The notes beneath the pieces were generated by a model. The model was not told where the DNA came from, ran no database searches, and was given only the letters and a program-made list of their open reading frames with translations. A stretch of DNA of 64,000 nt from an uncultured Leptolinea sp. (GTDB lineage: Bacteria; Chloroflexota; Anaerolineae; Anaerolineales; Anaerolineaceae): contig CAYLUZ010000003.1 in NCBI GenBank assembly GCA_964387025.1, positions 261,828-325,827 of the forward strand, written 5' to 3'. Shown in pieces: positions 12,833 to 62,112 of the stretch. The stretch's first letter is position 1. Each line of letters begins with the position of its first letter. A program made the translations under genes and the position numbers.

Positions 12833-13675
12833 ATGATATCAGGAAAATTGGATCAAATCCTTGCACAAGTGGAAAAAATGCGCCCTATGCCAATGAGCGT
12901 TACGCGGATTTTAAATGCTCTGGAAGACCCTAATAATACTGCAAGTGTTATAAGTGATTTAATCGGCTTGGATCAAGCTCTGGCAGCTTCGGTGTTGCAG
13001 ATGGCTAATTCAGCCGGGATGGGCTATAACGCAGTGTGTTCGTCTTTGACAGACGCTGTCATGAGGTTAGGGATTAAGAGGGTGAAAATCCTGGTTTTGG
13101 GCGCAGCTTCATCTGGACCTCTGACTCGCAGGTTGAATGGTTACCGCCTTGGAGCAGGAGAGTTGTGGAATCATTCTGTTTCCACAGCCATGATAGCACA
13201 ATGGGTATCCAGATATTTACATTATCCAGATCCCGAAGAAGCGTATGTCGCTGGTTTATTACATGACATGGGAAAACTGATCCTCGATCAATATATGATG
13301 GTTGATTATTCCAGGTTACTGGATATGATGCAGCAATATAACCTTGCGATGTGGCAGGTTGAAGAAAAATTGCTTGGTATTGATCACCCTACTATTGGTT
13401 CACTGATGGCGAAAAAATGGAATTTTCCAGTGATCCTGGTGGATGCAATTCGTTATCATCACGCTCCTTCATTAGCCAGAACCATGCATAAGCTGGGGGC
13501 AATAATAAACGTGGCGAATGTTTTCAGTAAAGACAGTAAGTACATTTCATCAGACCCTAATGGGGGAAGGGTTCACCCGGAATCTTTACAGATATTGAAC
13601 ATGGATGATGTGATGTTTGATCGAATGCGGATTCAATTACAGGATTTTAGGGCGAATCAAGGGAGTCGGGGTTAA
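12833..13675 (+). CDS. HDOD domain protein
   Basis: 'MPMSVTRILNAL...' N-terminus, 'LWNHSV', 'AGLLHDMGKLILD', 'HPTIGSLMAKKWNFP', 'IRYHHAP' are characteristic HDOD (HD-related output domain) blocks. Confidence 0.75.
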   Translation: MISGKLDQILAQVEKMRPMPMSVTRILNALEDPNNTASVISDLIGLDQALAASVLQMANSAGMGYNAVCSSLTDAVMRLGIKRVKILVLGAASSGPLTRRLNGYRLGAGELWNHSVSTAMIAQWVSRYLHYPDPEEAYVAGLLHDMGKLILDQYMMVDYSRLLDMMQQYNLAMWQVEEKLLGIDHPTIGSLMAKKWNFPVILVDAIRYHHAPSLARTMHKLGAIINVANVFSKDSKYISSDPNGGRVHPESLQILNMDDVMFDRMRIQLQDFRANQGSRG

Positions 13676-14964: not shown

Positions 14965-16038
14965 ATGTCAGATAAAACTGAAGCCCCAACCCAGAGAAGA
15001 TTAGATGAAGCCCGAGAAGAGGGTAAGGTTGCCCGCAGTACTGAGCTAAATACTGCTGCGATCATGCTGGTAGGCGCATTCTTACTTAAAGGTCCCGGGA
15101 CTGCCATGGTCAATGTAATCAAAGAATTGATTATTACAACCATTAATACATTACCGACAGCAATAATCACAGAGGCCAGCCTGCGTACAAAGCTCTTTTC
15201 TCTGGTCACAACGTTTGCACCCGCATTGGGTGTGATCATGATTGGATTGTTGGTTACAGGTGTGGCTGTAACTGTAGTACAAACCGGGTTTTTATGGTCA
15301 GGAAAAAAGATCGGTTTTGACTTTAAACGTCTTAATCCGATTACCGGGTTACAGCGCATATTCTCCGGGTCAGGTCTGATCGAACTTGGGCGTGCTTTAC
15401 TTAAGCTAGTCCTTGTTGGATGGGTGGTTTACTCATACTTAAAGAATCAAATTTCCGCATTGACCGACCTGGGACAAATGGATCTTGCCACCGGAGTTTC
15501 CAAATGGATCGATCTTGCTTCCACATTGGCAATAAGGGTCGGATCAGCCTATGTGGTGCTTGCAGTAGCTGATTATGCTCTTCAACGCTATCGTTTTATG
15601 CAGTCTATGCGGATGACAAAAGAAGAGATCAAAGAAGATTACAAACGATCAGAAGGCGATCCTTTCTTACGTGGCAGGATCCGTGCTCAACAAAGAAGGA
15701 TTGCCAGAAACCGGATGATGTCCAATGTTCCAAAAGCGAAAGTAGTCATCACCAACCCGACACATTTTGCCATCGCCCTGGACTACAATCCGGATAGTAT
15801 GACTGCACCGAGGGTATTGGCCAAAGGTGCGTTCCATGTTGCACAAAAGATTGTCGATATTGCCAGGCAAAATAATGTCCCAATAGTACAAAATATTCCA
15901 CTGGCAAGAGCATTATATAAAGCTGTAGAAGTAGATCAAGAAATATCACCGGAACTTTATCTGGCGGTTGCCGAAGTACTCGCTTATGTATACCGGTTAA
16001 AAACACCAGTTACTCGCATGCAGCCTTCTGCTGCCTAA
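14965..16038 (+). CDS. flhB: Flagellar export switch protein FlhB
   Basis: 'SDKTEAPTQRRLDEAREEGKVARS', 'MTKEEIKEDYKRSEGDP', and the autocleavage site 'NPTH' in 'VVITNPTHFAIAL'. Confidence 0.9.
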   Translation: MSDKTEAPTQRRLDEAREEGKVARSTELNTAAIMLVGAFLLKGPGTAMVNVIKELIITTINTLPTAIITEASLRTKLFSLVTTFAPALGVIMIGLLVTGVAVTVVQTGFLWSGKKIGFDFKRLNPITGLQRIFSGSGLIELGRALLKLVLVGWVVYSYLKNQISALTDLGQMDLATGVSKWIDLASTLAIRVGSAYVVLAVADYALQRYRFMQSMRMTKEEIKEDYKRSEGDPFLRGRIRAQQRRIARNRMMSNVPKAKVVITNPTHFAIALDYNPDSMTAPRVLAKGAFHVAQKIVDIARQNNVPIVQNIPLARALYKAVEVDQEISPELYLAVAEVLAYVYRLKTPVTRMQPSAA

Positions 16039-18155: not shown

Positions 18156-19466
18156 ATGTTGACTAAAACTTTTAGAGCACCCAATATGCTGGAAGCATTG
18201 CAAGAGATCCAAAAAGAACTTGGATCGGATGCAATAGTTCTATCCATGCGCGAAATTCCAGCTGGACCATTATGGCAAGTCTGGAATAAACCGGGGGTTG
18301 AAGTTGTAGCAACCCGTTACATCTCTGGCAATAAGCAACTTGAAAGAGCAGTTGAAGATCAATCCGAACAAAAGCATAAAATACCCGTTACACCAGGGAG
18401 AAAAGAAATTGAAGCGATACTGAATGCCATAGCCGAAAAAAATCAAAATGTATCATTTGATAAAGGACTGGCATCTTCTACAAAATTCAAGAAAAGTGAG
18501 ATTATCGAAGAAACAGAGAAACCACTTTCATGGGAACCACCGATTATACGTAAATCCATAGAACCTCAGCCACAATCTGGAAGTGAAAAACCTGCCATCC
18601 AAGCTCTGGAAAACGTAGTTAGGGAATTAAAAGAAGGACAAAGACCCCATCTTGGAACACTTAGAGAAGAGGTTTTGGAAATTCCTCCTGCCCTGCGAGC
18701 AATTAAAAAAAGAATGCTCGCCCAGGGGATAGATATGGCACTTGTAGAGCATATTATTAGTACCAATCTGAATGCTATTAGCCCGACTATTCTAACTGAT
18801 GAGAATCGGCTAAAAAAATTCATGATGAAACAATTGGAAGCTAGTTTACGCCCCCAGCAGAATTCGATGGCAGTGATTCAAAGTCGGGTGATGTGCCTGG
18901 TAGGATCGAGCGGTTCAGGAAAAACAAGCACGATCGCTAAACTGGCTGCATATTATTCAAAGACCCTGGGTAAAAAAGTTGCGTGGGTTTGCGCAGATAC
19001 AATTAGGGCGGGGGCGATCAGTGAAACTAAAACTTATACAGATGTTATGGAAATCCCCTTATTCTTTACTTATTCACCACAGGAATTAGTGGAAGTTTTG
19101 GAATCTCAGAATGATGCAGACCTCATCCTCGTTGATACTTCTGGAATCAGTATGGTGGATGAGGACAAGATCGTAGAATTAGGTTCTTACCTGTCTGTTC
19201 TGCCGGGCAGATCCATATACCTTACAGCTCCAGCGACGATGAAAGAAGCTGATATCTACCAAGCCATTTCAACATTTAGCCCATTTAAGATCCGCGGATT
19301 GGTGGTAACCAAGATGGATGAAACATTTACTTATGGATCAATTTTTAATGTGACCAATAGATCAAAATTACCGGTTTTGTATTTTACTAATGGCCATCAG
19401 GTTTTAGGAAATCTGCATCAAGGTACCCCGATAGGTCTCATCGCTTATCTGTTTGGGGAAGGATGA
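18156..19466 (+). CDS. flhF: Flagellar SRP-type GTPase FlhF
   Basis: G-domain motifs 'LVGSSGSGKTSTIAKLA', 'LILVDTSG', 'VVTKMDET', with an N-terminal basic/B domain. Confidence 0.85.
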   Translation: MLTKTFRAPNMLEALQEIQKELGSDAIVLSMREIPAGPLWQVWNKPGVEVVATRYISGNKQLERAVEDQSEQKHKIPVTPGRKEIEAILNAIAEKNQNVSFDKGLASSTKFKKSEIIEETEKPLSWEPPIIRKSIEPQPQSGSEKPAIQALENVVRELKEGQRPHLGTLREEVLEIPPALRAIKKRMLAQGIDMALVEHIISTNLNAISPTILTDENRLKKFMMKQLEASLRPQQNSMAVIQSRVMCLVGSSGSGKTSTIAKLAAYYSKTLGKKVAWVCADTIRAGAISETKTYTDVMEIPLFFTYSPQELVEVLESQNDADLILVDTSGISMVDEDKIVELGSYLSVLPGRSIYLTAPATMKEADIYQAISTFSPFKIRGLVVTKMDETFTYGSIFNVTNRSKLPVLYFTNGHQVLGNLHQGTPIGLIAYLFGEG

Positions 19467-19807
19467 TTGCAATGAGCCCGAAAAAAGACTCTTCAAATGT
19501 AAAAGAATCTTCAGCTGGCTCCAAAGGCCAGAGATTGCCAATATTATGGGAAACTATAAATACCTTTTCGAAAATCATAGTGACCCTATTAGGATTAGCC
19601 GTTGCAATTGTCTCATATTATTCCGGCAGTGGGTTCTTGATCTCTTCCATTCGGGCAGGTGCAGCAATGTTAGGTGTTGGATTTTTATTTTGGTTGATCT
19701 ACTGGATGGTGGTCAAAGGATCGATCAGGATGATGAATGACTTGGCCAGAAAACAGGAAGAATTCAATACACAAAACCAAAATGGATTCATGGAATACAA
19801 GGTGTAA
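19463..19807 (+). CDS. Small two-TM membrane protein of unknown function, in the slot usually held by flhG
   Basis: 114 aa. Start shares an ATGA overlap with the flhF stop. Two hydrophobic helices ('IIVTLLGLAVAIVSYY', 'AMLGVGFLFWLIYWMVV'). No Walker A motif. Confidence 0.5.
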   Translation: MIAMSPKKDSSNVKESSAGSKGQRLPILWETINTFSKIIVTLLGLAVAIVSYYSGSGFLISSIRAGAAMLGVGFLFWLIYWMVVKGSIRMMNDLARKQEEFNTQNQNGFMEYKV

Positions 19808-19814
19808 ATGAATC

Positions 19815-20582
19815 ATGATTAATCAGATGAATGAAACCGAGCTGCAAAAACAATACGTTTCCATGAAAGATGTCAATGCACGGGAAGAAATGGTTCTGCG
19901 ATATGTGTCACTTGTCCATTTTGTGCTGGGCAGGCTGGGAATCTCTCAAGGATCCGGGAATGATTATGAAGACCTGGTAAACCAGGGCTTAATCGGATTG
20001 ATCGAAGCTGTTGACAGGTATGATCCAAAATTCAATACTCAGTTCAGCACTTATGCTACCTTCCGTATTCGAGGGAAGATCCTCGATTACTTACGTTCCC
20101 TTGATTGGCTATCCCGAACAGCCAGACATCGAGCACGGGATGTTCGCCAGGCGATTAATTCGCTCACTGACCTAAATCAACGGATACCGACTGATAGCGA
20201 ACTGGCCGAACATATGAATATGGATATTGGAAAAGTTCAACAAGCTTTGATGGATTCGAGCAGGGTAATTGTTTCTCTTGATGCGGTTGTAGATTATGAT
20301 GAGGAAAATGACGCATCTCTTTACGAAACAATTGCAGATGAAAATCAAAACGATCCTTCAGATATCATTGGAGAAAAAGACCTTATATCGAAACTTACTG
20401 AAGTGATCAAACAACTCCCGGAGCGGGAGCAGACACTTCTTTCTCTTTATTACTATGAGGAACTTACTCTAAGTGAGATAGGCACTGTTTTGGGGGTCTC
20501 AGAATCCCGTGCCTGTCAACTACATGCGAGAGCGGTTATGACTCTACAAGCACTCCTGACGAAGGGAGATAATAATGACTAA
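19815..20582 (+). CDS. fliA: Flagellar sigma factor FliA (sigma-28 / SigD type)
   Basis: Region 2 'FSTYATFRIRGKILDYLR', region 4 'LTLSEIGTVLGVSESRACQLHARAV', size ~255 aa, flagellar context. Confidence 0.85.
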   Translation: MINQMNETELQKQYVSMKDVNAREEMVLRYVSLVHFVLGRLGISQGSGNDYEDLVNQGLIGLIEAVDRYDPKFNTQFSTYATFRIRGKILDYLRSLDWLSRTARHRARDVRQAINSLTDLNQRIPTDSELAEHMNMDIGKVQQALMDSSRVIVSLDAVVDYDEENDASLYETIADENQNDPSDIIGEKDLISKLTEVIKQLPEREQTLLSLYYYEELTLSEIGTVLGVSESRACQLHARAVMTLQALLTKGDNND

Positions 20583-20967
20583 CACGATCATTCCCGGTTT
20601 ACTGCACGACACACTGAATTTGGTCCAACTGGCGAGAGAATCTGCCCTGGTACAGGGAAAAGCGAAGCAGGCGAATAAGCTGACTCCTGTAATGGATGAT
20701 CTAAAGAACATGGTTCAAACCTCTGATCAAACAAAACCACCCACGGCTTCCGGTGGTGTTCTGATGCAATCTGATTTCAAGAAACTATTAGATGCAGCCA
20801 AAACTGTAAGCGGTAACCAGAGAGTATCAACCACAACAAATATTGCTGAACGTAATCAAATGGTAAGGGCAATGTCTGGAAGTAACATGCCGGAGGTCGA
20901 TATTGCCCGACAGCTTGGAATGACACGTGAAGAAGTGCGGATGATCACAAGTTTAAGCTCAAGGTAA
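20575..20967 (+). CDS. Hypothetical protein with a C-terminal HTH-like segment, translationally coupled to fliA
   Basis: 130-aa ORF overlapping the fliA stop by 8 nt. The C-terminal 'PEVDIARQLGMTREEVRMI' resembles a sigma region-4-type helix-turn-helix. I cannot assign a family. Confidence 0.45.
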   Translation: MTNTIIPGLLHDTLNLVQLARESALVQGKAKQANKLTPVMDDLKNMVQTSDQTKPPTASGGVLMQSDFKKLLDAAKTVSGNQRVSTTTNIAERNQMVRAMSGSNMPEVDIARQLGMTREEVRMITSLSSR

Positions 20968-21756: not shown

Positions 21757-22497
21757 ATGACCGGATCACTCTTTCATGTTTTGAACATTTCCCGCATTGA
21801 TATGCTGGCAAAAACAGATGACCTTGATATTGTCAGCAATAACGTAGCCAATATAAACACTGCGGGTTATCGAAGTAACCGTGGCAATTTTCAAGAGATG
21901 CTGCAAAAACTTAACTATGAAGGTGTCAATTTAGCATCCAGTCAGTTAATTGTAAAACAAGGTGCGATCCACCAGACTAAAAATCAATTGGATATTGCCA
22001 TACAGGGTAATGGTTTTTTTGGTGTGACCATCGCTGCAGGAAAAACCGGATATACCCGGGATGGACAGTTCTTACTTGATTCCACGGGAAAGATTGTAAA
22101 TGGAAATGGAAACCCATTAGTCTGGACTGGAACAATTCCTCCGGAAACTACTGAAATTCAGATCCAACCAGATGGTATTGTTCGTGCTTTGGCAGGTGAT
22201 GTGTGGACTGAAGCAGGTACAATTCAACTTACACGGTTTGCGAATGCTAGCGGATTACAAAATTCAGGTAATAATATTCTAGTAGAAACCCCTGCTTCCG
22301 GTACACCACAAAATGGGGCACCTGGATCACCCAATTTTGGATCGCTCCTCTCGCAATCAGTTGAGGACTCGAATGTAAACTATGCCGATGAAGTGACACA
22401 TTTAATGGCACTTCAGAGAGGTTTTCAAATGAGTTCCCGCACTTTTCAGACGACTGACACGATGATCACTCAAGCCATCCACATGAGAAAAACTTAA
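21757..22497 (+). CDS. flgG: Flagellar distal rod protein FlgG
   Basis: 'IVSNNVANINTAGYRS', 'LDIAIQGNGFFGV', 'TRDGQF', C-terminal 'VEDSNVNYADEVTHLMALQRGFQ'. Confidence 0.8.
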   Translation: MTGSLFHVLNISRIDMLAKTDDLDIVSNNVANINTAGYRSNRGNFQEMLQKLNYEGVNLASSQLIVKQGAIHQTKNQLDIAIQGNGFFGVTIAAGKTGYTRDGQFLLDSTGKIVNGNGNPLVWTGTIPPETTEIQIQPDGIVRALAGDVWTEAGTIQLTRFANASGLQNSGNNILVETPASGTPQNGAPGSPNFGSLLSQSVEDSNVNYADEVTHLMALQRGFQMSSRTFQTTDTMITQAIHMRKT

Positions 22498-22520
22498 GTT
22501 TAGAGAAAGATAACCGATAA
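22494..22520 (+). promoter_or_regulatory. Sigma-28-type promoter upstream of flgM
   Basis: TTAA-N15-ACCGATAA compared with the consensus TAAA-N15-GCCGATAA, located 55 nt upstream of the flgM ATG. Confidence 0.45.
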
Positions 22521-26070: not shown

Positions 26071-26382
26071 ATGTTAGTTCTTACCAGGCGCATTGATGAA
26101 AGCTTAAATATTGGGGATTCAATTACCATTACCGTTTTATCCATCGATGGCGATAAGGTAAAGATTGGGATCAATGCACCGCGGGAAATTACAATATTAC
26201 GCCAGGAGATATATCAAGCTGTTCAGGAACAAACAAAGCTGGAACAGTGGCTTGCAGAGAAGCCGGAGCCGGAAACTTTTAAAGGCTTAAGGGAATTATT
26301 AGTATCGAATTCCAGTGACGGTTTCGAAGATATCACGCTTTCTAACGATCAAGCTGACGTAGAAAAGCCTGCTCAGCAATGA
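26071..26382 (+). CDS. csrA: Carbon storage regulator CsrA with a long C-terminal extension
   Basis: '[48 protein letters not shown]' is the canonical CsrA fold. A further ~45 aa follow, giving 103 aa in total. Confidence 0.9.
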
Positions 26383-26677
26383 TCTTTCGGTAAGGTATTC
26401 CCCGAATTGTCATCATCATAGCTGCTTCGACGTCATGGACCCTGATGATCCTCCCAACAATATTAAATGGATCACCGTCATGTAAAACTACTGTTGCCTG
26501 GAAAATGTCCCCGGGCAATTTTATTGCTTCCGGGTTGTAAAAGCGGACGCCAATTTCACATATATCGACAATGGAAAATTGAATGCCCCGGATGGTGATT
26601 GCAGGACGGTGTTCCAAGGGGTATTGCACTCTGAAATTAGCTCTGCGTTCACTTCCTTGTTTGGGATTATTTTCCAT
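26342..26677 (-). CDS. Single-domain PilZ protein (putative c-di-GMP receptor)
   Basis: 'RRANFR' (RRxxxR) and 'DICEIG' (D/NxSxxG with Ser replaced by Cys) at canonical spacing. Start overlaps the stop of the upstream FlhBc-like gene by 11 nt. Confidence 0.75.
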
Positions 26678-26984
26678 TGGTTATGATCTCCCTTTGTATT
26701 GTATGCTGGGTCTGAACCCGATAGATATATGCAAAAATCTCTGCGACGACAATATAAAGTTCTGGTGGTATTGCCTGATTGACATTTACCCGACTTAACG
26801 TTTCTGCCAGAATTGGGTCGGGATGGATAGGAATATTATTTTCTCTGGCAGCGGTGAGTATTGCTTCCGCTATTTTACCACGCCCGGATGCAATAACAAC
26901 AGGAGCGTTATCACGATCCGGATCATATCCAAGGGCGGTAGCAGAAATTCGATTGTTTTTTCCAGCCTTGGTTCCTATGCTCAT
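26667..26984 (-). CDS. FlhB C-terminal-domain paralogue (YlqH / COG2257-like)
   Basis: Aligns with FlhB residues after the cleavage site: 'NNRISATALGYDPDRDNAPVVIASGRGKIAEAILTAARENNIPIHPDPILAETL...IPPELYIVVAEIFAYIYR' versus FlhB 'NPTHFAIALDYNPDSMTAPRVLAKGAFHVAQKIVDIARQNNVPIVQNIPLARAL...ISPELYLAVAEVLAYVYR'. NPTH is replaced by NNRI and there is no TM domain. Confidence 0.85.
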   Translation of the reverse strand: MSIGTKAGKNNRISATALGYDPDRDNAPVVIASGRGKIAEAILTAARENNIPIHPDPILAETLSRVNVNQAIPPELYIVVAEIFAYIYRVQTQHTIQREIITNGK

Positions 26985-26986
26985 AA

Positions 26987-28369
26987 TTATGCTTCCAGAT
27001 TGATTCCAACGAGGTCTGATTTGTAATTTAATGAACTTTCATGACCTGTGTTGAGCAATTTCTTCTCGGTTTCCACCTGACTTACTTTGGTTTCATAACC
27101 GAGATGCATGAGTTCTTCCCGCAGGCTCGGCAATTCACTTCTGGCTATATTTGTAAGCTGTGAATTGGAGGTTGATATGGATAATCCTGCATCATGGTCA
27201 ACAACTGAGAAATCCACTTCGATGACATCCCCTTTATCAATATCCATGCGGATCACCAGGCGGGTATAGCGGGGGTCAATGCTAATTGCATCTTCATCCG
27301 GATTACGGGCAATGCGGATACTTGCCGACGGTTGATCTTCAGGGTTTTTAATAAGCTGCGGTGGAGTCATCGGAAAAGTTACCGGGAATTCCATCCTGAT
27401 CCACTGATTTGAAGCAGACTCAGAGGTGGCAGAGGAGTGATAGAGATGCATCAACCTGATGGAATCATTAAATTGATCAATACCTCCTGAAAGTGAGGTC
27501 ATTCCGTGAGAGGCTAGCTCATTCCGTAATCTGGAGAGAACCATCAACCCGCGTTCCAGATTATTTGCCGAGATATTTTTAAAGGGACTACTAATTGTCT
27601 CAAACAGCTCATTTTCCACTGACTTTCCAAGCAGGATGATGGCATTTTGAAGTTTTGTAGTTAAGACTTCCGCTGGTAAACTTGCATCCATGACTGCCTG
27701 ACTTAAGATCTGGAGGGAGGTTTTAGCAAGATCGATTAGCGTTGGTGGCAACCGTCTATCGGAAAGGGCTTGTGTTAGCTGTTGAATGATCTTCAGAACC
27801 TGTCCGCTAACATCCTTTTGGGCATTGAGCATTAAATTAATCGATTCAGGAGTGATGATTATTCCATGCGACTTTAATGTAGCTGCCGCAGTGGCGTGAT
27901 CTTTACCCCAATTGGGGATGTTTCTCAAAGAACTTTTCAAATCATCAACCAGATTGGCTGTGATCGTTAATCCATTGCGGATGGCCGCCTGTGCGATCAA
28001 TTGATTTGACAAATTATCTTCTATCCCGGCCTGGACGAGTAATTTTGATAGAAGCCTGGTGTTATTTGTAGATAGTGTTAACTGGTTAACTGAAGGTTTC
28101 GTTTCCGCCAATTGTAATGTGAGGACATCATTACTCATGTCCTTCACAATAAACTGGGCAAAACGTTTTTCTATGAGGCTTGCAGTCTGTTCTGGGGTGA
28201 TCATCCGTGCCACCAGTTGAACTCCCTGGATTGATAGGATCACCTGCTCATTTTCAACTTTGATAACTTCTCCGGCAATATGCTGGTTTACCTTTAAAAA
28301 CAAAGTGGATTCACTCTGATTTTGGAGTGAACTTTGGGTTACTGCCGGTAAATTCGTAAGGTTAAGCAT
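26987..28369 (-). CDS. Hypothetical protein with a FliK-like (Flg_hook-like) C-terminal domain
   Basis: 460 aa. The C-terminal 'LVIRMDIDKGDVIEVDFSVVDHDAGLSISTSNSQLTNIARSELPSLREELMHLGY' has the same pattern as the FliK C-terminus in this window ('IRIQLHPEDLGQIELRITSSSQGTHVSLIADQ...LKQTLSDAGV'). Sits immediately upstream of the FlhBc paralogue. Confidence 0.4.
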   Translation of the reverse strand: MLNLTNLPAVTQSSLQNQSESTLFLKVNQHIAGEVIKVENEQVILSIQGVQLVARMITPEQTASLIEKRFAQFIVKDMSNDVLTLQLAETKPSVNQLTLSTNNTRLLSKLLVQAGIEDNLSNQLIAQAAIRNGLTITANLVDDLKSSLRNIPNWGKDHATAAATLKSHGIIITPESINLMLNAQKDVSGQVLKIIQQLTQALSDRRLPPTLIDLAKTSLQILSQAVMDASLPAEVLTTKLQNAIILLGKSVENELFETISSPFKNISANNLERGLMVLSRLRNELASHGMTSLSGGIDQFNDSIRLMHLYHSSATSESASNQWIRMEFPVTFPMTPPQLIKNPEDQPSASIRIARNPDEDAISIDPRYTRLVIRMDIDKGDVIEVDFSVVDHDAGLSISTSNSQLTNIARSELPSLREELMHLGYETKVSQVETEKKLLNTGHESSLNYKSDLVGINLEA

Positions 28370-28382
28370 GGAGTTGTTGGAA

Positions 28383-28418
28383 ATCAGGCGGCTGGTAATC
28401 CTTTACCAGCCGCCTGAT
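28383..28418 (-). terminator. Perfect 16-bp inverted repeat between flgE and the FliK-like gene (attenuator, processing or stabiliser hairpin)
   Basis: ATCAGGCGGCTGGTAA-tcct-TTACCAGCCGCCTGAT, 10 nt after the flgE stop. The downstream U-tract on the - strand is weak (TTTCC). Confidence 0.5.
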
Positions 28419-28427
28419 CATCTACTC

Positions 28428-29684
28428 TTAGCGTTTAAGGTTTACAAGTTCCTGAAGGATTTCATCAGAAGTGGTGATCACTCTGGTTGAGGCTTGGAAA
28501 CCACGTTGTGCCAGGATCATACTTGTAAATTCCTGAGCCATATCCACGTTGCTGGCCTCGAGGTAACCACTGGAGATCCAACCACGGCCGCCACCACCTG
28601 CTGAACCAATCTGGGCATCACCTGAGTTTAATCCGGCTTTAAAAAGGTTCTGTCCTGCCCTCAGCAAACCTGTGGGGTTTGTGAAATGAGATAATGCAAG
28701 CTGTCCAACCAATTGTTTTAACCCATTGGAATAAACCAGGTAAATTTCACCGGTATTGGGGGCACCATAAATATCTGTTACAGTTCCAGCAGATAGACCA
28801 TCTTGACTGCGGGCAGAAGCTCCATTGGCTGCATCAAACATGGTCATCTTTTCAAGATTGAGGTTGGATGCATTTACCATATCAATATCCGCTGCACCTG
28901 TGCTGCCTGGAATATGAATGAGGTCACCTGCGTTAATTGTTGAGCCTTGGTAATGACCCTGGTTATCAAAAGTTAATGTTCCAGAACCAGTAATACCTAA
29001 TAGATCTGGATCCTGCAAAGCCCATGTCCATGCATTATTACCTGTTCTTGCAAACTGAACCGTAACTGTATGGAGACTTCCCAGGGAATCATAGACGCCA
29101 AAAGTTGAGTCTACTGTATTGCCTGCTGCAGGAGCGACCGGCGTGGTGGAACTCAGATTGCCGCCAAATTGAACGTTTTGTGTTGCCTGTGCCAGGGTTG
29201 CTTCTAGGGCTACCTGCATATCACCAACAGGCTGGTTCGTATCGACTATCAATCCATTCGGTGGAACTGTCCATCCCTGTATACGCATACCGGTAGAGTT
29301 GTTGACCAGGAAACCTGTGGCGTCAATTTCCAGGGATCCTTCCCTTGAAAAACGCTGCTCATCTCCCGCAGCATATATGAAGAAACCATCGCCCTGGATT
29401 GCCAAGTCAGTACTGCGTCCGGTGCTTTGCAGCATACCCTGGGTAAAAACCGGGGAGACATAACCTAATTTCACACCCAAACCAACCTGGGTAGGGTTGA
29501 TACCACCTGTGGTTGCGGATGGTGCAGAGCCAGAGCTCATGATCTGCGCAAATTGATCTTGAAAGACTACCCGGCTGGACTTATAACCGGTTGTGTTTGT
29601 ATTAGCCAGGTTATCTGCAATAACATCCAAATATGTCTGATGAAGATTTAAGGAACTGATTGCTGTAAACATTGAGCGTATCAT
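28428..29684 (-). CDS. flgE: Flagellar hook protein FlgE
   Basis: 'MIRSMFTAISSLNLHQTYLDVIADNLANTNTTGYK', 'DLAIQGDGFF', C-terminal 'GYLEASNVDMAQEFTSMILAQRGFQA'. Confidence 0.9.
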   Translation of the reverse strand: MIRSMFTAISSLNLHQTYLDVIADNLANTNTTGYKSSRVVFQDQFAQIMSSGSAPSATTGGINPTQVGLGVKLGYVSPVFTQGMLQSTGRSTDLAIQGDGFFIYAAGDEQRFSREGSLEIDATGFLVNNSTGMRIQGWTVPPNGLIVDTNQPVGDMQVALEATLAQATQNVQFGGNLSSTTPVAPAAGNTVDSTFGVYDSLGSLHTVTVQFARTGNNAWTWALQDPDLLGITGSGTLTFDNQGHYQGSTINAGDLIHIPGSTGAADIDMVNASNLNLEKMTMFDAANGASARSQDGLSAGTVTDIYGAPNTGEIYLVYSNGLKQLVGQLALSHFTNPTGLLRAGQNLFKAGLNSGDAQIGSAGGGGRGWISSGYLEASNVDMAQEFTSMILAQRGFQASTRVITTSDEILQELVNLKR

Positions 29685-30622: not shown

Positions 30623-32218
30623 CTAAATTCTATAATCCACTAGGGAATTATTTGGATGTGATTGGGTGGATACAATATCGTTTATACCCATACTGTTTTT
30701 ATTATCATAATTGGTGCTTTGTCTTGGTGAGCTCTGATTGGATTGCGGATCGCGGAAAGATTGCTGCGGAGCCTGCTGCCCAACATGTACGTCTGCCATC
30801 TGTACACCTGCATCAGATAAGGTCTGTTTCAGTTGGGCAATATGGGTTTCGAGCAATTTGCCTGTTACTGCCTGGTCTGCTATGAGAGACACATGGGTAC
30901 CCTGCGATGAGGAGGTAATGCGTAACTCTATCTGGCCCAGGTCTTCGGGGTGAAGTTGAATGCGAATGGTTTGCGAACCGGAATTAGGTGAGCCTGCAAT
31001 CTGACGACTGATCTGTCTCAAGATTTCTGTTGATTGAGCTTCCGCCAGGCGGGCCGGCTCATTGATTTTTCCGGTGAACGGATCTGCCTTCATCCGATCT
31101 GTCACCACTCCAGGTGTTGATGCGGGAGGCGCTTTATCAGGTGAGTCGGGCGGTGTCTCAGGGACTAGTTTTCTTTCAGCTTTATCAGTGTTATTAGTGC
31201 CTTTAACCTCAGCCACTGCTTTTACATCTTCTACCCGATTTTTATTTACAGTAGACACACCAACTGGCTGAACTTCGGTTTTGGAGGGCATCTTACCTTT
31301 GTTATCTGGATCCTGATCAACATTGGTTGACGTAATAAAGCCTTTTTCTTTTGCCACGCTTGATGGTACCGGGTTTGAAGTATTTTCACCATCGATCATT
31401 GTCGAAACAAGATCAACAGATTCTGTTATTTCGTTCTGGTTCCCTATTGATCCTTCAGCTGTCTCATTTACGAGTGGTGCAACAGAAGCTTTACCCTGAT
31501 CTCCAATTGTTGAATTTTGAGATGTTGAAAGAGATTGTGACAGTTTTTCAAAACGGGAGTCTTGTTTTGAGGGAGATATGGACAGTTCGTTTCCTTGAGG
31601 CTGTAATGATTGATCGAGACCTTTAACCTCCTTTGTGTCCTTACCTGCCACTTTTTCTACTGGATCTGTGTGAAGTTTGGAAGGTATTTTTTCTGTTCCG
31701 AAAGCATTCATTACCCGTTCACCTGGTAAAGAACTTATGGCAGACTGGATCTGTTGTGACGTTGGTCCACCGGGAGTTATTGACCCGCTTTCACTTTCTC
31801 CCATCTGATCCTCTTTAGTTTCAGATGTCGCCTCCAGTTTAGTTTGGTCAACTGGAGTAGAGTTTAAAATGAGAATTGGAACTTCCTGGGTTGGAACCTT
31901 CGTTGGAGCCATTTGACAGTTCAATTGTGGTTGGGCATTTTCAATAACCCTGTTTGTCTGTTTATTTTCCTCATCTATTTTTTCAGAATTTTTATCTTCT
32001 CTTGTAGTTTTCACCTCCGACTCAATATTATTTTGGGGTTGAATTTTCACCGCATGATCATTCTGCAATATTCCATCATCTGCTTGCGAAATTTCGCTGG
32101 TTTTCTGTTGAAGGATTTGCTCAAAATCCCCAGATTTTTCCGGCTTGATAAATGATTTTGCCGATTTGACCGATGGCGGTGAGGTCGTTATGATCGGTAT
32201 GTTCATTGGTACTGTCAT
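30623..32218 (-). CDS. fliK: Hook-length control protein FliK
   Basis: 531 aa with a long low-complexity Ser/Thr/Pro/Gln-rich ruler region and a C-terminal Flg_hook-type block 'IRIQLHPEDLGQIELRI...VSLIADQ'. Position upstream of flgD. Confidence 0.7.
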   Translation of the reverse strand: MTVPMNIPIITTSPPSVKSAKSFIKPEKSGDFEQILQQKTSEISQADDGILQNDHAVKIQPQNNIESEVKTTREDKNSEKIDEENKQTNRVIENAQPQLNCQMAPTKVPTQEVPILILNSTPVDQTKLEATSETKEDQMGESESGSITPGGPTSQQIQSAISSLPGERVMNAFGTEKIPSKLHTDPVEKVAGKDTKEVKGLDQSLQPQGNELSISPSKQDSRFEKLSQSLSTSQNSTIGDQGKASVAPLVNETAEGSIGNQNEITESVDLVSTMIDGENTSNPVPSSVAKEKGFITSTNVDQDPDNKGKMPSKTEVQPVGVSTVNKNRVEDVKAVAEVKGTNNTDKAERKLVPETPPDSPDKAPPASTPGVVTDRMKADPFTGKINEPARLAEAQSTEILRQISRQIAGSPNSGSQTIRIQLHPEDLGQIELRITSSSQGTHVSLIADQAVTGKLLETHIAQLKQTLSDAGVQMADVHVGQQAPQQSFRDPQSNQSSPRQSTNYDNKNSMGINDIVSTQSHPNNSLVDYRI

Positions 32219-43413: not shown

Positions 43414-43612
43414 TTCAAACCTCCTTGTTTGTTTGGCCGGGGATCCTTCCCCTTGTACTTCTTTGATATTGTGCGGGCTAATTATTTTCCTGGAAGACGG
43501 TCAGCCCGCTTGTCCCGTCTTCAGCGCTCGATGGTGGACTTCCATTTTCAACTGTAGTGATTTCTCAAATAAGCTGCCTCCTGAAATGATCTCGGAATGA
43601 TGCTTCTTTGTC
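43414..43612 (-). promoter_or_regulatory. Long flagellin 5' leader (copy 1) with CsrA-type GGA sites and a conserved hairpin
   Basis: mRNA sense: GGGGAAGGAUCCCC hairpin (43439-43452) presenting AAGGAU in its loop, 12 nt upstream of the SD AAGGAGG (43420-43426). Further GGA motifs are present. An 8-bp stem GAAGACGG/CCGUCUUC lies at 43493-43522. These blocks are conserved in copy 2. Confidence 0.5.
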
Positions 43613-43620
43613 TGTTACTG

Positions 43621-43647
43621 GTATCGTCAGTATGCTGATAATCTTTA
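43621..43647 (-). promoter_or_regulatory. Sigma-28-type promoter of flagellin 1
   Basis: - strand TAAA-N15-GACGATAC (consensus TAAA-N15-GCCGATAA). Confidence 0.55.
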
Positions 43648-43700
43648 ATTTTGATTTATAAATATTACGTAAAATTTGACATTTGTATTATTTACTCCCG

Positions 43701-44963: not shown

Positions 44964-45164
44964 GTCAAACCTCCTTGTTTGTTTGGCCGGGGATCCTTCC
45001 CCATTTAGTTCTTTTGCCATGGTAAGAGCTTATTATTTTCCTGAAAAACGGTCAGCCCGCTTGTCCCGTCTTCAGCGCTCGATGGTAGACTTCCATTTCA
45101 AAAGTGGTGACGTCTCAAATAAACTGCCTCCTATAATTAGATTTGGAGTTTGTTATTTTTTGTC
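44964..45164 (-). promoter_or_regulatory. Long flagellin 5' leader (copy 2)
   Basis: Same SD, GGGGAAGGAUCCCC hairpin (44989-45002), AGGAGGCAG box (45127-45132) and stem (45044-45073) as copy 1. In this stem two C-to-U changes convert G-C pairs to G-U pairs. Confidence 0.5.
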
Positions 45165-45172
45165 TCCTACTG

Positions 45173-45199
45173 GTATCGTCAAAAACCCTTTTAACTTGA
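45173..45199 (-). promoter_or_regulatory. Sigma-28-type promoter of flagellin 2
   Basis: Identical -10 GACGATAC. The -35 at N15 is TCAA. Confidence 0.4.
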
Positions 45200-45397
45200 T
45201 TTATATTCCATAAAAATTACGTAATATTTTCTTTACACCCCCTGAGTAAGTACTTAATAAGGGAAAGGAAACATCAAAACCAAAACCGATCATTATCCCG
45301 GTCAAATTCGTAAAACCGAAAAAATATCTACCTTCACGTTATAAGGAAAAATTAGGGTAGGAATGGAAGTTTTGAGAAATTATGTACCAGGGAATGA

Positions 45398-46080: not shown

Positions 46081-47334
46081 TTATGATGCCTGACCATCCG
46101 TTACGCGAGACTGGGCGGTTGTTATAGCTTTTCGTAAGGTGGAAGAATCATTCGCAGTAGATAACCCTATAGCCATTACAAGACTATCGCTTTTCGGCTT
46201 TGCCTGGTTATATCTTACTACGGCCTGGATCACACGTTGAACAGCCCGTTTCCCGATTGATAGCTCAGATAATGGCATCAGAACACCGAATTCATGTGAA
46301 CCGATACGGGCAGAAAGATCTTCCCTTCTGAAACATGCCCTTAATATTCCTGCCGCTTCTTTCACCTTTAAATCATCCACCGGGTATTTTCTGTCTTCAT
46401 TGAATACTTTCACTGATCTCAGTTCGCAGAATAAAACACTGATCGGATAACGCCGGCTGTTTTCCAATCTTTCGACCTCTGCTTCAAAATACACCCGGTT
46501 GAATAAACCTGTGACTGGATCATGAGTGCTAAGGTATTGAAGAGTTTCCTCTGATTTCTTCACCTTTGTGATATCACGAATGGTTTCAACTGCGCCAACG
46601 ATCTCTCCATTTGTATTTTTTAACGGGGCAGCTTTTATCCACAGGTAGATTCCTTCTGGCTTTAATGTGTTCAAAGTGATTTCTGCCGCGAGAGATTCGC
46701 CATCCTCTTCACAGGAAGGATAATGCGACTTTCGCTGATCACTATTCTCCAGGCAATAATCAATCAACATTGGGCGCCGGCTGCCATAGAAGGGGAGTGA
46801 ATACTCGTAATCGGCTTTCCCGAGGATTTCATCCGCTTTGACATGTGTGAGGTCAACCATCGCTTGATTCCATGCGGTCACTTTGCCATGAATATCAATT
46901 AATAACGTTGGATCAGGAAGAAAATCGATAATTCGTAATAATATTGATTGATTTATCTCCTCTTTGGATTCAATTAAAAGGGAACCAGATGCCTTACCCT
47001 GAACCAGGATATATTTGAATTCATTTCCAGATTCTATGATTTTTTTTATGGCTATCTCAGACCAGATACTTTTTTCAGAATCATCGCCATTAAATATGAT
47101 ATTGGTTTCAAGTAACGAGGATTTTGCAAATTGCTCAATTTCATCAGCTGCCCATGGAAAAAATTTTCGAATGGAGTCACCAACAACTGCAGTGTTTCCG
47201 GATCTGGAAACCACAGCATTAAATTCAACGATTTTAAACCTATTATCAATCAAAAGGATCGGGCAGTTTATTGCATCAAAGATCAGTTTAAATTGGTCTT
47301 CCAACATTACTCTACCTCCCGTGCAATCTTTCAT
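46081..47334 (-). CDS. PAS-containing degenerate GGDEF-domain protein (GSHEF, intact RxxD)
   Basis: 'DPVTGLFNRVYF' opens the GGDEF domain. The active-site motif reads 'GSHEF' (46288-46302), with 'RRED' exactly 5 residues upstream. The upstream metal and substrate positions ('CELRSVKVFNEDRKYPVDD') also deviate from DxDxFKxxNDxxGHxxGD. Confidence 0.8.
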   Translation of the reverse strand: MKDCTGGRVMLEDQFKLIFDAINCPILLIDNRFKIVEFNAVVSRSGNTAVVGDSIRKFFPWAADEIEQFAKSSLLETNIIFNGDDSEKSIWSEIAIKKIIESGNEFKYILVQGKASGSLLIESKEEINQSILLRIIDFLPDPTLLIDIHGKVTAWNQAMVDLTHVKADEILGKADYEYSLPFYGSRRPMLIDYCLENSDQRKSHYPSCEEDGESLAAEITLNTLKPEGIYLWIKAAPLKNTNGEIVGAVETIRDITKVKKSEETLQYLSTHDPVTGLFNRVYFEAEVERLENSRRYPISVLFCELRSVKVFNEDRKYPVDDLKVKEAAGILRACFRREDLSARIGSHEFGVLMPLSELSIGKRAVQRVIQAVVRYNQAKPKSDSLVMAIGLSTANDSSTLRKAITTAQSRVTDGQAS

Positions 47335-61018: not shown

Positions 61019-61134
61019 ATAAAATTAGAAATAAGTTTGTAAGTAGTTTGTAAGTTATTAGATATCTTGTCGTATGATATATAACCTATAATTTACTTTA
61101 GTAATCAATATACGTTCCTTAACAATTTGTTCAC

Positions 61135-61222
61135 GAGAATAGCAAAACCGGTGAAAACCGGTGACGCAAAGCTATGGGTCTTCGATCAGAGAAATCTGAT
61201 AATGATTGCCAGGTTACCGAAA
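61135..61222 (+). promoter_or_regulatory. c-di-GMP-I (GEMM-I) riboswitch aptamer, copy 1
   Basis: GCAAAACC-[ACCGGU GAAA ACCGGU]-GACGCAAAGC-UAUGGGUC...[AUCAGA GAAA UCUGAU]...UUGCCAGGUUACCGAAAG. Shares GCAAAcC, the GNRA-capped P2, GACGCAAAGC and GGUUACCGA with the Vc2-type consensus. Confidence 0.85.
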
Positions 61223-61243
61223 GTACGATTTTTACGTATGACT

Positions 61244-61274
61244 AAGACCCGGCATAAGACCCGGGTCTTTTTTG
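61244..61274 (+). terminator. Intrinsic terminator forming the expression platform of riboswitch 1
   Basis: AAGACCCGG-cataagac-CCGGGTCTT followed by TTTTTTG. The 5' arm AAGACCC is also complementary to the aptamer segment GGGTCTT (61176-61182). Confidence 0.7.
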
Positions 61275-61295
61275 TACACTAACAAAGCATGAACG

Positions 61296-61378
61296 ATAAG
61301 GGCAAAACCGGTGAAAACCGGTGACGCAAAGCTATGGGTCTAACACCGATGAGGTTATGACCGCCAGGCCGCCGAAAT
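61296..61378 (+). promoter_or_regulatory. c-di-GMP-I (GEMM-I) riboswitch aptamer, copy 2
   Basis: The first 40 nt (61302-61341) are identical to copy 1 (61142-61181). The 3' half differs (...GACCGCCAGGCCGCCGAAAU). GACCCAT at 61416-61422 can pair with the aptamer segment AUGGGUC. Confidence 0.75.
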
Positions 61379-61455
61379 AAATATAATACCTTCCCAATTT
61401 TCACTCCAGGCGGTTGACCCATATCTTAGTCAAGCCCTTGTCAGAAAGAGACAAG

Positions 61456-62112
61456 ATGGTTTTTGACTTCAAACGTATGGTAAGAATATTCACACTCACA
61501 GTAGTTTTACTGGCGAGTTTGTTTCCATTTTCACAAGCACAAGCCAACATTCCGGTAACAGCAGATCCCATTCCTGCAGCATCTACAATCGGGACTTCAA
61601 CATCAAAATCATCGGTCATTGCTTTATCCGATTTTGCTGCAGCAATCAATGATGGCAAATCAGTTCTCCGTGGAGTATATGTTCCTGATGTAATGGCTTT
61701 CCGCGTTATCCAACAGCCAAAGAACCAGAGTGGATTTGTTTCAACCATTAGAGGATTGGTCACTCAATTTGGATTGGCCTCAGATTATGGGACGATCGGT
61801 TTACTCGCTCACAACTTCGCTGCTGGATCTGAGTTCTCCAAGGTCCTGGTTGGTAACACAGTCAGCGTAATTTATGGGGATGGGACAATAAAGGAATTTA
61901 TCGTTACAAAAATCGCTCGTTACCAGGCATTACAACCAAATAGCACCAGTTCAAATTTCCTGGACCTGGAAACGAATGAAAAATTATCCGCTGGAACATT
62001 GTTCAAGGCAGTTTATGGTGGAAAAGCTCACCTGACATTACAAACCTGCATCGCACAGGGTAAAGAAAGCTCCTGGGGCAGGTTGTTCATCATTGCAGAA
62101 CCGGTAAAATAA
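61456..62112 (+). CDS. Secreted sortase-fold protein (paralogue 2), downstream of the tandem riboswitches
   Basis: Signal-like 'MVRIFTLTVVLLASLFPFSQAQA'; 'GLLAHNFAAG', 'LTLQTC', 'WGRLFIIAEP'. Start set at ATG 61456; the track ORF start at 61414 lies inside the riboswitch platform. Confidence 0.55.
   Translation: MVFDFKRMVRIFTLTVVLLASLFPFSQAQANIPVTADPIPAASTIGTSTSKSSVIALSDFAAAINDGKSVLRGVYVPDVMAFRVIQQPKNQSGFVSTIRGLVTQFGLASDYGTIGLLAHNFAAGSEFSKVLVGNTVSVIYGDGTIKEFIVTKIARYQALQPNSTSSNFLDLETNEKLSAGTLFKAVYGGKAHLTLQTCIAQGKESSWGRLFIIAEPVK

Follow-up and report, generated by a model that had tools for sequence, protein, structure and literature searches.

The 3' end of a flagellar hook operon from an Anaerolineae-type bacterium very probably carries the widespread fliK2-flhX pair (ylqG-ylqH) together with a clade-specific gene for a MapZ-like PilZ protein, a putative c-di-GMP receptor. 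The operon lies in a stretch of 64,000 nucleotides, referred to here as the window. An earlier note on this DNA had seen in the first two genes a second copy of the FliK and FlhB-C partners. The domain calls of the note are right, but the pair is already named and widespread, the 460-aa protein is no duplicate of FliK, and only the attached PilZ gene is new. A FliK-like gene paired with an FlhB-C-like gene has been described as the fliK2-flhX operon of Pseudomonas putida (bioRxiv 10.1101/2021.08.29.457346) and as an "flhX-fliK" pair in Campylobacterota (PMC9321776); that the window pair matches the ylqG-ylqH pair of Bacillaceae is shown here by full-length hhalign alignment. Literature searches on YlqG, HP1575, PilZ with FlhB and Anaerolineae PilZ proteins turned up no account of a PilZ-FlhX link and no paper on a link between PilZ and the export switch, in keeping with the novelty that the earlier note had supposed.

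The three genes are tightly packed on the minus strand downstream of flgE, as had been claimed. The open reading frames place fliK2 (460 aa) at 26987..28369, flhX (105 aa) at 26667..26984 and pilZ (111 aa) at 26342..26677; the gap between fliK2 and flhX is 2 nt, and the start of pilZ overlaps the stop of flhX by 11 nt. On its upstream side the trio adjoins the hook-protein gene flgE (28428..29684, minus strand; Pfam Flg_bb_rod, LlgE_F_G_D1, FlgE_D2 and Flg_bbr_C), and the operon reads flgB-like, fliK, flgD, TIGR02530 and flgE, with the trio at its 3' end. The genuine fliK (531 aa; 30623..32218, minus strand) sits at the canonical site before flgD and matches Pfam Flg_hook over residues 405-487 (E 9.5e-19). 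A full-length flhB of 357 aa (14965..16038, plus strand; Bac_export_2, E 2.1e-122), whose translation has an intact NPTH (264-267) and LARALY, thus co-occurs with flhX in the window. Convergent with pilZ, and overlapping its 3' end by 41 nt, is csrA (26071..26382, plus strand; 103 aa with a long C-terminal extension; Pfam CsrA, E 4.8e-25), the last gene of the opposing flgM-flgN-flgK-flgL-csrA operon.

A GC-rich, 17-bp hairpin (28382..28419, minus strand) separates the stop of flgE from the start of fliK2; it is the main feature of the 94-nt segment of flgE 3' end and intergenic DNA for which RNAfold gave -35.5 kcal/mol. Most related loci have a hairpin of different sequence at the equivalent position. 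This element is likely a partial terminator or a 3'-end stabiliser that would lower the expression of the trio. A sigma-28-type promoter (TAAA-N15-CGATA) precedes flgM and fliC; none was found upstream of the trio. The sequencing runs that contain the trio region are all DNA metagenomes (rock, freshwater, sediment and others), with no RNA run among them. A tandem c-di-GMP-I riboswitch in the window at 61131-61377 shows that the organism uses c-di-GMP. A nearby PAS-GGDEF protein was considered as the dedicated source of the nucleotide and rejected, its active site being degenerate (GSHEF).

FlhX is a stand-alone paralogue of the FlhB_CC subdomain, identified by Pfam and NCBIfam, by its identity to FlhB and by its motifs. 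It matches Bac_export_2 at profile positions 262-335 of 335 (E 2.6e-19) and shares 48 % identity over 79 residues with the FlhB of the window (residues 269-347). The alignment sets N264-P-T-H267 of FlhB against N10-N-R-I13 of FlhX, which confirms that the protein begins at the position of the autocleavage site with NNRI in place of NPTH; only nine residues precede this position, and the CN strand is absent. The best NCBIfam match, TIGR00789 (flhB_rel), scores 98.6 bits, under the cut-off of 117.35, but it spans model positions 2-82 of 84, and from this near-complete coverage we read FlhX as a divergent member of the family. Among 131 family sequences NPTH is kept in none, and the tyrosine of LARxLY is lost by a one-residue deletion. 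The family retains A-P and VAE..AY, which we take to be the positions lining the substrate-docking pocket of FlhB. The position of the lost tyrosine is the site of FlhB/YscU/HrcU suppressor mutations that bypass the T3S4 protein (PMC3040844).

The 460-aa protein is assigned to the FliK2/YlqG family by Pfam, hhalign, its AF2 model and its position before flhX. Its C-terminus had been likened to the FliK Flg_hook domain, and this resemblance is weak in the window protein and clearer in the family: residues 365-433 of the window protein match below threshold (E 0.0017; 18.6 bits, where the gathering score is 29.8), and 20 of 27 homologues match at E <= 0.01, the best at E 4.2e-8. Six of the 27 match DUF6240. 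The AF2 model (pLDDT 71.8, with 70-89 in the folded N-terminal parts) predicts a disordered segment (1-21), an OB/S1-like beta-barrel (~30-87), an all-helical domain (~99-311) and a degenerate Flg_hook (T3S4-like) alpha/beta domain (~323-434); the C-terminal tail, ending in GINLEA, is conserved. Compared with the Bacillaceae proteins encoded upstream of ylqH, the family aligned over its full length (family columns 27-435 against 19-537; hhalign probability 98.2 %, E 3e-14). BLASTP of the window FliK against the FliK2 C-terminus found no significant similarity, and the profile comparison with genuine FliK in the Flg_hook region gave E 0.0098 with a probability of 4 %. We rejected FliK2 as a duplicate or orthologue of FliK, since the N-terminal two thirds are predicted to be a folded OB-like and helical region in place of a disordered ruler, and since the 531-aa FliK already occupies the canonical place. 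Foldseek of the whole model against the PDB returned no FliK match, only weak partial OB-plus-helical ones (RuvA, eIF2alpha; TM < 0.3), and neither the FliK2 nor the PilZ family profile recovered anything meaningful from the PDB sequences. An FlhB_CN-like segment that might supply the missing beta-strand was sought in FliK2 and PilZ, and none was found.

The 111-aa product of the third gene is a single-domain, stand-alone PilZ protein with RRxxxR and DxCxxG, as its motifs, AF2 fold and Foldseek matches confirm. Against Pfam PilZ it scores 21.9 bits, just under the gathering score of 22.5. The motifs are R11-R12-x3-R16 and D38-I-C-E-I-G43; the three arginines do not vary across 33 sequences, and DI[C/S]ExG is conserved in the orthologues with D, E and G invariant. 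At position 40 most orthologues have Cys and some (L001, P0039, P0065) have Ser. In the window it is Cys where the canonical DxSxxG has Ser, a point that we count against a c-di-GMP-linked role in export. The AF2 model (pLDDT 86, pTM 0.78) has the six-stranded beta-barrel of the PilZ fold, and Foldseek matched it with a probability of 1.00 and TM 0.5-0.6 to solved PilZ domains, to which it is 10-21 % identical. The top matches were MapZ-CheR1 (5xly/5y4r), PA0012, PA4608, Alg44, MotI, PlzA and YcgR; MrkH was matched with the same probability.

The earlier note had asked whether the trio is syntenic in related genomes. It is, in dozens of independent contigs, and the sister clades and other phyla examined lack the PilZ gene. 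Our scan returned 29 loci and was biased towards Chloroflexi, where fliK2 stands immediately upstream of flhX in 24 of 24 loci. The same order occurs in Bacillaceae, Tissierellia, P. aeruginosa (Flg_hook 9.9e-19, the two genes overlapping by 4 nt) and Cupriavidus, where the pair follows fliD-fliS. The coupling of pilZ to flhX proved tight and conserved: across 25 non-redundant loci the two genes are spaced by -29 to +23 nt, and in 13 of these they overlap. All PilZ relatives of at least 45 % identity with upstream sequence available lie directly after flhX, as do three of 33-39 % identity (L048, L057, L059). The PilZ-bearing loci form essentially one deep Anaerolineae clade, within which FliK2 proteins can be as little as about 27-29 % identical, and of the trio PilZ varies least (59-98 % identity among word-search homologues, against 27-90 % for FliK2). 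pilZ is missing from seven of the 24 Chloroflexi fliK2-flhX loci (L014, L015, L017, L025, L088-L090), and none of the pairs examined outside Chloroflexi has it, so the pair works without PilZ. In this single deep clade of Anaerolineae, pilZ was inserted with flhX on one side and the convergent csrA on the other; sister clades lack it.

How might the three proteins act together? We infer the protein-protein contacts and the direction of regulation as follows. FlhX would be a free copy of FlhB_CC that has kept the docking-pocket residues and lost the NPTH loop and the LARxLY tyrosine. FliK2 is probably a non-secreted T3S4-type protein with a folded N-terminal domain in place of a ruler, comparable to cytoplasmic HpaC, and would engage FlhX in the manner of FliK on FlhB_C; T3S4 proteins are known to bind the C-domain of FlhB/HrcU (PMC3040844). 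Together they may form a soluble switch-like module, which could either exchange with FlhB_CC at the export gate, after the reported "spare part" behaviour of H. pylori FlhX, or bind and hold early substrates. PilZ would be co-translated with FlhX and, in its c-di-GMP-loaded form, bind FlhX or FliK2, thereby relaying the second-messenger state to export specificity. Taken whole, gene identities and PilZ-read module together, this explanation has a probability somewhat short of even. A direct link of PilZ to FlhX or FliK2 is rather doubtful in our estimation, and the full proposition that c-di-GMP-loaded PilZ binds FlhX and/or FliK2 and thereby controls gate occupancy or the substrate specificity of type III export we regard as unlikely. 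That c-di-GMP gates the export switch through the trio is an idea drawn from gene adjacency in a single clade. Control of flagellar export by c-di-GMP is not unprecedented, because FliI binds the nucleotide (review, PMC12564702). Several observations count against the model. An operon end is the easiest site for a gene to insert; the solved structures nearest to PilZ belong to adaptors that act elsewhere (MapZ on CheR1, MotI on MotA); no FlhX-PilZ fusion was found among the best 150 of 992 PilZ subfamily representatives, and the more distant members occur in non-flagellar contexts. For the contact between FliK2 and FlhX, the binding of HpaC required an NPTH motif (PMC3040844), which FlhX lacks.

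A serious competing account, to which we give a little less than an even chance, makes PilZ a general adaptor that links c-di-GMP to motility, serving as brake, clutch or chemotaxis modulator on MotA, FliG/FliM, FliL or CheR/CheA. The hook-operon position would then serve only co-expression with flagellar genes, with no functional tie to FlhX or FliK2. The structural neighbours MapZ (in its CheR1 complex), PA0012, MotI, YcgR and PlzA fit this account, as do the loci in which cheA follows a related PilZ gene (L053, L054) or comes directly after flhX (L017), the absence of pilZ from a share of Chloroflexi loci and from other phyla, and the make-up of the 992-representative subfamily, which is mostly stand-alone or tandem with many non-flagellar relatives. 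There is precedent in Pseudomonas, where flgZ follows flgMN, yet FlgZ acts on the stator; there, the neighbours of a PilZ gene are not its targets. Against the adaptor stand the adjacency of flhX and pilZ, which is strict, often overlapping and maintained through a deep clade in two different downstream contexts, and the 111-aa, one-domain form of the window protein, without the YcgR-N/PilZN domain of YcgR, FlgZ and MotI.

Quite unlikely, in our judgement, is that FliK2 and FlhX have nothing to do with substrate-specificity switching, the pair acting instead as a cytoplasmic holder or chaperone of rod- and hook-type subunits through the retained FlhB pocket, or outside the flagellum, with PilZ regulating that activity. 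Such a role would suit the Bacillaceae and Tissierellia pairs, which lie between rnhB and sucCD or yraN, away from flagellar genes, and the Gemmatimonadetes flhX (L021), solitary after serS. It would also suit a protein that retains A-P and VAE..AY without NPTH and the LARxLY tyrosine. To our knowledge, however, no TIGR00789 member occurs in a genome that lacks FlhB, and the pair is embedded in or co-regulated with flagellar genes in Chloroflexi, Cupriavidus and Pseudomonas. The study that names the operon describes fliK2 as functionally uncharacterised, but it also reports that the Pseudomonas operon is FliA-dependent and that H. pylori FlhX partly replaces FlhB function (bioRxiv 10.1101/2021.08.29.457346). 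Finally, both the 460-aa protein and PilZ score under their Pfam gathering thresholds, which might hint that some or all of the trio are chance reading frames or pseudogenes. We put the probability of this close to nil, and conservation refutes it: full-length homologues of 27-98 % identity keep the same gene order in dozens of independent contigs, so the genes are real, and both AF2 models are confident and the motifs invariant.

FlhX and FliK2/YlqG are widespread, in Bacillota, Pseudomonadota, Campylobacterota and Chloroflexi, and a clade in which the pair is tightly coupled to a putative c-di-GMP receptor offers a concrete biochemical lead. If the module read by PilZ is real, this would be the first PilZ effector on the FlhB/FliK switch and not on the motor, the link would assign a function to the enigmatic FlhX-FliK2 pair, and c-di-GMP may have a second route to flagellar export besides FliI. 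If the target of PilZ is instead the motor or the chemotaxis system, the gene is an ordinary addition to an operon end. Two by-products are the full-length homology that ties YlqG, labelled "glycosyl transferase" in RefSeq, to the FliK2 family, and the family-wide loss from FlhX of NPTH and of the tyrosine at the LARxLY suppressor position.

Among known systems, the closest are P. putida fliK2-flhX (PP_4328-PP_4329) and its P. aeruginosa equivalent, in which, as in the window, a gene with a FliK-like C-domain directly precedes, often with an overlap, one for an FlhB_CC paralogue of ~100 aa, and genuine fliK and flhB are encoded elsewhere in the genome; H. pylori FlhX (HP1575) is a further FlhX counterpart. 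The Flg_hook match is strong in Pseudomonas FliK2 (9.9e-19) and only 1.7e-3 in the window protein. The Pseudomonas pair forms a separate, FliA-dependent operon with no PilZ gene after it, whereas the window pair follows flgE behind a hairpin and lacks a sigma-28-like promoter. Bacillaceae ylqG-ylqH shares full-length FliK2 homology, including the same N-terminal beta-domain motif, and its ylqH matches as FlhX does (Bac_export_2 7e-20). YlqG is about 100 residues longer than the window FliK2, and the pair lies between rnhB and sucC, outside flagellar operons and without PilZ. With the FliK/FlhB_C, YscP/YscU and HpaC/HrcU switches the trio's first two proteins have the domain types in common, T3S4/Flg_hook-like and the FlhB C-terminal fold. 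FliK2 resembles FliK in its beta-beta-beta-alpha-beta pattern and hydrophobic C-terminal tail and differs in having no disordered ruler; FlhX, unlike FlhB, has no membrane domain, CN segment, NPTH or LARxLY tyrosine. A cytoplasmic location is presumed for both; as a non-secreted T3S4 protein, HpaC comes closest to FliK2. The YcgR, FlgZ and MotI brakes are, as is predicted for the window PilZ, c-di-GMP receptors encoded with flagellar genes, but they carry an extra YcgR-N/PilZN domain and act on stator or rotor. The stand-alone PilZ adaptors MapZ/PA4608, PA0012 and Caulobacter DgrA share with the window protein a single beta-barrel of ~110 aa, a C-terminal helix, and the RxxxR and D-x-S/C-x-x-G motifs. 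What sets the window PilZ apart from any characterised PilZ protein is its genomic partner, flhX.

The window, from an uncultured bacterium of the Chloroflexi, contains a complete flagellar region. The bacterium is closest to MAGs labelled Chloroflexia, Anaerolineaceae or Leptolinea; its DNA is present in several types of environmental metagenome, including rock, freshwater and sediment. The first part of the plus strand carries motA, motB, fliL, fliM, fliN, fliO, fliP, an HDOD gene, fliR, flhB (14965-16038), flhA, flhF and fliA, followed by flgF/G, flgM, flgN, flgK, flgL and csrA. Converging on csrA on the minus strand are two flagellin genes, fliD, flaG, fliS, flgC, fliF, fliG, fliH, fliI and fliJ. 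The same strand encodes an SLT lytic transglycosylase, a flgB-like gene, fliK, flgD, a TIGR02530 gene, flgE (28428-29684) and, after it, the trio fliK2 (26987-28369, 460 aa), flhX (26667-26984, 105 aa) and pilZ (26342-26677, 111 aa), whose coordinates match the earlier note exactly. Two nucleotides separate fliK2 from flhX. The pilZ ATG, preceded by a Shine-Dalgarno-like GGGAGA, lies 11 nt upstream of the flhX stop, the very overlap that had been claimed. The HDOD-domain gene (12833-13675, plus strand; E 5.7e-54) lies between fliP and fliR and places a signalling-type domain inside the export-gate operon, which is unusual. Small conserved ORFs flank fliA, one of 114 aa (19463-19807, plus strand) with no Pfam match and one of 130 aa (20575-20967, plus strand) that matches DUF6115 weakly; the synteny of both extends to the related loci L001-L003. 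No flhG/minD-type gene follows flhF in the window.

Between the stop codon of flgE and the start of fliK2 stands a strong 17-bp GC-rich hairpin (28382-28419, minus strand), the main feature of a segment of 94 nt with a folding energy of -35.5 kcal/mol. Its position, with a different sequence, is kept in most related loci (L001, L002, L004-L008, L010, L012, L014, L016, L017, L019 and L025), and its probable role is that of an attenuator, or of a stabiliser at the 3' end of the flgE mRNA. A sigma-28-like promoter of the type found before flgM and fliC was sought before the three genes and none was found. Given this result and the hairpin, the trio is most likely transcribed by reduced-level read-through from the hook operon. 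In the regions 43414-43660 and 45021-45200 (minus strand), the two tandem flagellin genes share a nearly identical 5' leader of ~110 nt. A sigma-28-like TAAA-N15-GACGATA is located at 43647-43622; a similar element, TAAG-N15-CCGATA, precedes flgM (22495-22519).

The C-terminus of the 460-aa protein had been likened to the Flg_hook domain of FliK. At the profile level the likeness shows in the family, with Flg_hook matches in 20 of 27 homologues (best E 4.2e-8; DUF6240 matches in six); the protein's own match is weak (E 0.0017). Its AF2 model (pLDDT 71.8) falls into four parts: at the N-terminus residues 1-21 are disordered, ~30-87 make an OB/S1-like barrel, ~99-311 form a helical domain, and the C-domain (~323-434) has a beta-beta-beta-beta-beta-alpha-beta topology. 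The last three strands and the helix of the C-domain line up with the Flg_hook part of the genuine FliK of the window (minus strand, 531 aa, Flg_hook E 9.5e-19; hhalign E 0.0098). No BLAST-level similarity between the two was found, and Foldseek with the whole model returned only OB-plus-helix partial matches. The decisive comparison was profile-profile: the protein matches over its full length the 560-590-aa proteins encoded directly upstream of Bacillaceae ylqH (probability 98.2 %, E 3e-14), which places it in the FliK2/YlqG family. A duplicated FliK was thus rejected. Members of the family share a conserved extreme C-terminus, ...INLE[AV], which is similar to those of FliK (...VDYRI) and of the Bacillaceae proteins (...VDVRI). 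In Bacillus velezensis (NZ_CP083716.1; locus L086, 2274-3977) the YlqG homologue upstream of an FlhB-like gene is named "glycosyl transferase" in RefSeq, a label that is probably wrong, since profile comparison puts YlqG-like proteins at this position in other Bacillaceae in the FliK2 family.

FlhX matches only the last 74 positions of the Bac_export_2 profile (Pfam, E 2.6e-19). The best NCBIfam model, TIGR00789 "FlhB-like", is covered in full at 98.6 bits, against a curated cut-off of 117.35, and FlhX shares 48 % identity with the FlhB encoded in the window, over residues 269-347 of the latter. Our alignment of the family covered 131 members and two real FlhB C-domains. FlhB N264-P-T-H267 aligns with FlhX N10-N-R-I13, the replacement that had been proposed, and NPTH is kept in none of the 131. 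At the A-P and VAE..AY positions there is almost no variation; work in Salmonella places these in the lining of the FlhB_C pocket where early substrates dock. LARxLY has become L-A-E-x-L, a one-residue deletion having taken out the Tyr, the site of FlhB(Y323D), YscU(Y317D) and HrcU(Y318D), mutations that bypass a missing T3S4 protein (PMC3040844). We infer that FlhX is a docking-competent FlhB_CC without the elements that normally throw the switch.

The fliK2-flhX pair is ancient, and it had a name before this analysis. With FlhX as the seed, a pattern scan across GTDB gave 29 loci, and a FliK2-family gene directly precedes flhX in all 20 from Chloroflexi. The context is ylqF-rnhB-ylqG-ylqH-sucCD in Bacillaceae and rbgA-rnhB-(460 aa)-flhX in a Tissierellia MAG. 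P. aeruginosa has a 4-nt overlap between the gene for a 492-aa "FliK" (Flg_hook 9.9e-19) and that for a 111-aa FlhX; in Cupriavidus, fliD and fliS are followed by a 139-aa ORF, a gene for a FliK-like protein of 447 aa and then flhX. In Halalkalibacter kiskunsagensis a single 87-aa ORF (L030, 898-1161) joins the N-terminus of YlqG to the C-terminus of YlqH, as though the pair had been lost by deletion in this species. PP_4328-PP_4329 was named the fliK2-flhX operon by Leal-Morales et al., FliA-dependent and of uncharacterised function (bioRxiv 10.1101/2021.08.29.457346); "flhX-fliK" was noted in Campylobacterota as well (PMC9321776), and standard flagellar gene lists include FlhX. This prior naming makes the "second copy of both partners" of the earlier note a known though unexplained module. 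The interpretation in that note is supported in part: its domain calls and the tight coupling of pilZ to flhX stand, and the pair itself was already known.

Of the three proteins, PilZ varies least (59-98 % identity across word-search homologues). Both motifs that had marked it as a single-domain PilZ protein are conserved: RRxxxR (R11, R12, R16) is invariant, as are D38, E41 and G43 of DI[C/S]ExG, with Cys or Ser at position 40. The confident AF2 model (pLDDT 86) matches PilZ domains, the best structural matches in Foldseek, all at probability 1.00, being Lpg0364, the MapZ-CheR1 complex, PA0012, PA4608, Alg44, MotI, PlzA, MrkH and YcgR. The subfamily (992 representatives at E <= 1e-3) is mostly stand-alone or tandem; a few members, by our reading of the sequences, are fused to DnaJ-like or SixA-like domains, and no FlhX-PilZ fusion occurs among the best 150 of the 992.

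A metagenome scan seeded with PilZ gave 52 loci. All relatives of at least 45 % identity with upstream sequence available, and three at 33-39 %, directly follow fliK2-flhX; those at 27-39 % otherwise lie in unrelated contexts. The arrangement recurs in 25 non-redundant loci, with -29 to +23 nt between the flhX stop and the pilZ start and an overlap in 13. Among 24 Chloroflexi loci with fliK2-flhX, 17 have pilZ; in the other seven flhX is directly followed by csrA (L014, L015, L025, L088, L089, L090) or cheA (L017). In a neighbour-joining tree of FliK2 the loci with pilZ fall essentially into a single large clade, to which those lacking it are sister or basal. This pattern is consistent with one main insertion of pilZ between flhX and csrA, then long retention, as FliK2 identity within the clade falls to about 27-29 %. 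No paper describing this extension was found in the literature, and on these sequences it is new and limited to one Anaerolineae clade. The csrA gene of the window (26071-26382, plus strand) encodes 103 aa, including a C-terminal extension of ~45 aa, and its 3' end overlaps that of pilZ by 41 nt. Across the loci compared (the window, L001-L003 and L088-L091), CsrA has 101-111 aa and overlaps pilZ in pilZ-bearing loci and has 83-97 aa in pilZ-less ones; fliW is absent between flgL and csrA.

That c-di-GMP signalling exists in the organism is shown by tandem c-di-GMP-I riboswitch aptamers (61131-61221 and 61292-61377, plus strand; Rfam RF01051, 76.9 bits, and RF03167, 67.1 bits), which lie upstream of a 232-aa ORF (61414-62112) with no Pfam match. 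At the edge of the flagellar cluster, beside the flagellin genes, is a PAS-GGDEF gene (46081-47334, minus strand), whose product is probably not an active cyclase, as its active-site motif is degenerate (GSHEF versus GGDEF/GGEEF).

PilZ may merely share the operon and act elsewhere in the flagellar or chemotaxis system, an explanation to which, summed over several targets, we give an appreciable but less than even chance. Its nearest structures are MapZ and MotI, some of its relatives adjoin cheA (two precede it), and the fliK2-flhX pair functions without PilZ in most lineages. In Pseudomonas, flgZ follows flgMN although its product targets the stator. The steady adjacency of pilZ to flhX is the setting for a more specific proposal, the likeliest of its kind and, taken in full, still a tentative one: that FliK2 and FlhX would form a soluble switch-like module coupled to c-di-GMP by PilZ. 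The PilZ-extended trio, known from gene adjacency in uncultured organisms, offers a testable handle on the unexplained module.

Under the proposal of a c-di-GMP-coupled module, FliK2 would be a cytoplasmic T3S4-type protein, for which the non-secreted HpaC of Xanthomonas is a precedent (PMC3040844). FlhX, as a free FlhB_CC, would together with FliK2 swap with FlhB_CC at the gate, a behaviour reported for H. pylori FlhX (bioRxiv 10.1101/2021.08.29.457346), or retain early substrates. PilZ, produced together with FlhX, would link the two to c-di-GMP; FliI provides a precedent for control of flagellar export by this messenger (PMC12564702). The PilZ of the window is of the single-domain adaptor type, whereas the brakes YcgR and MotI are two-domain proteins.
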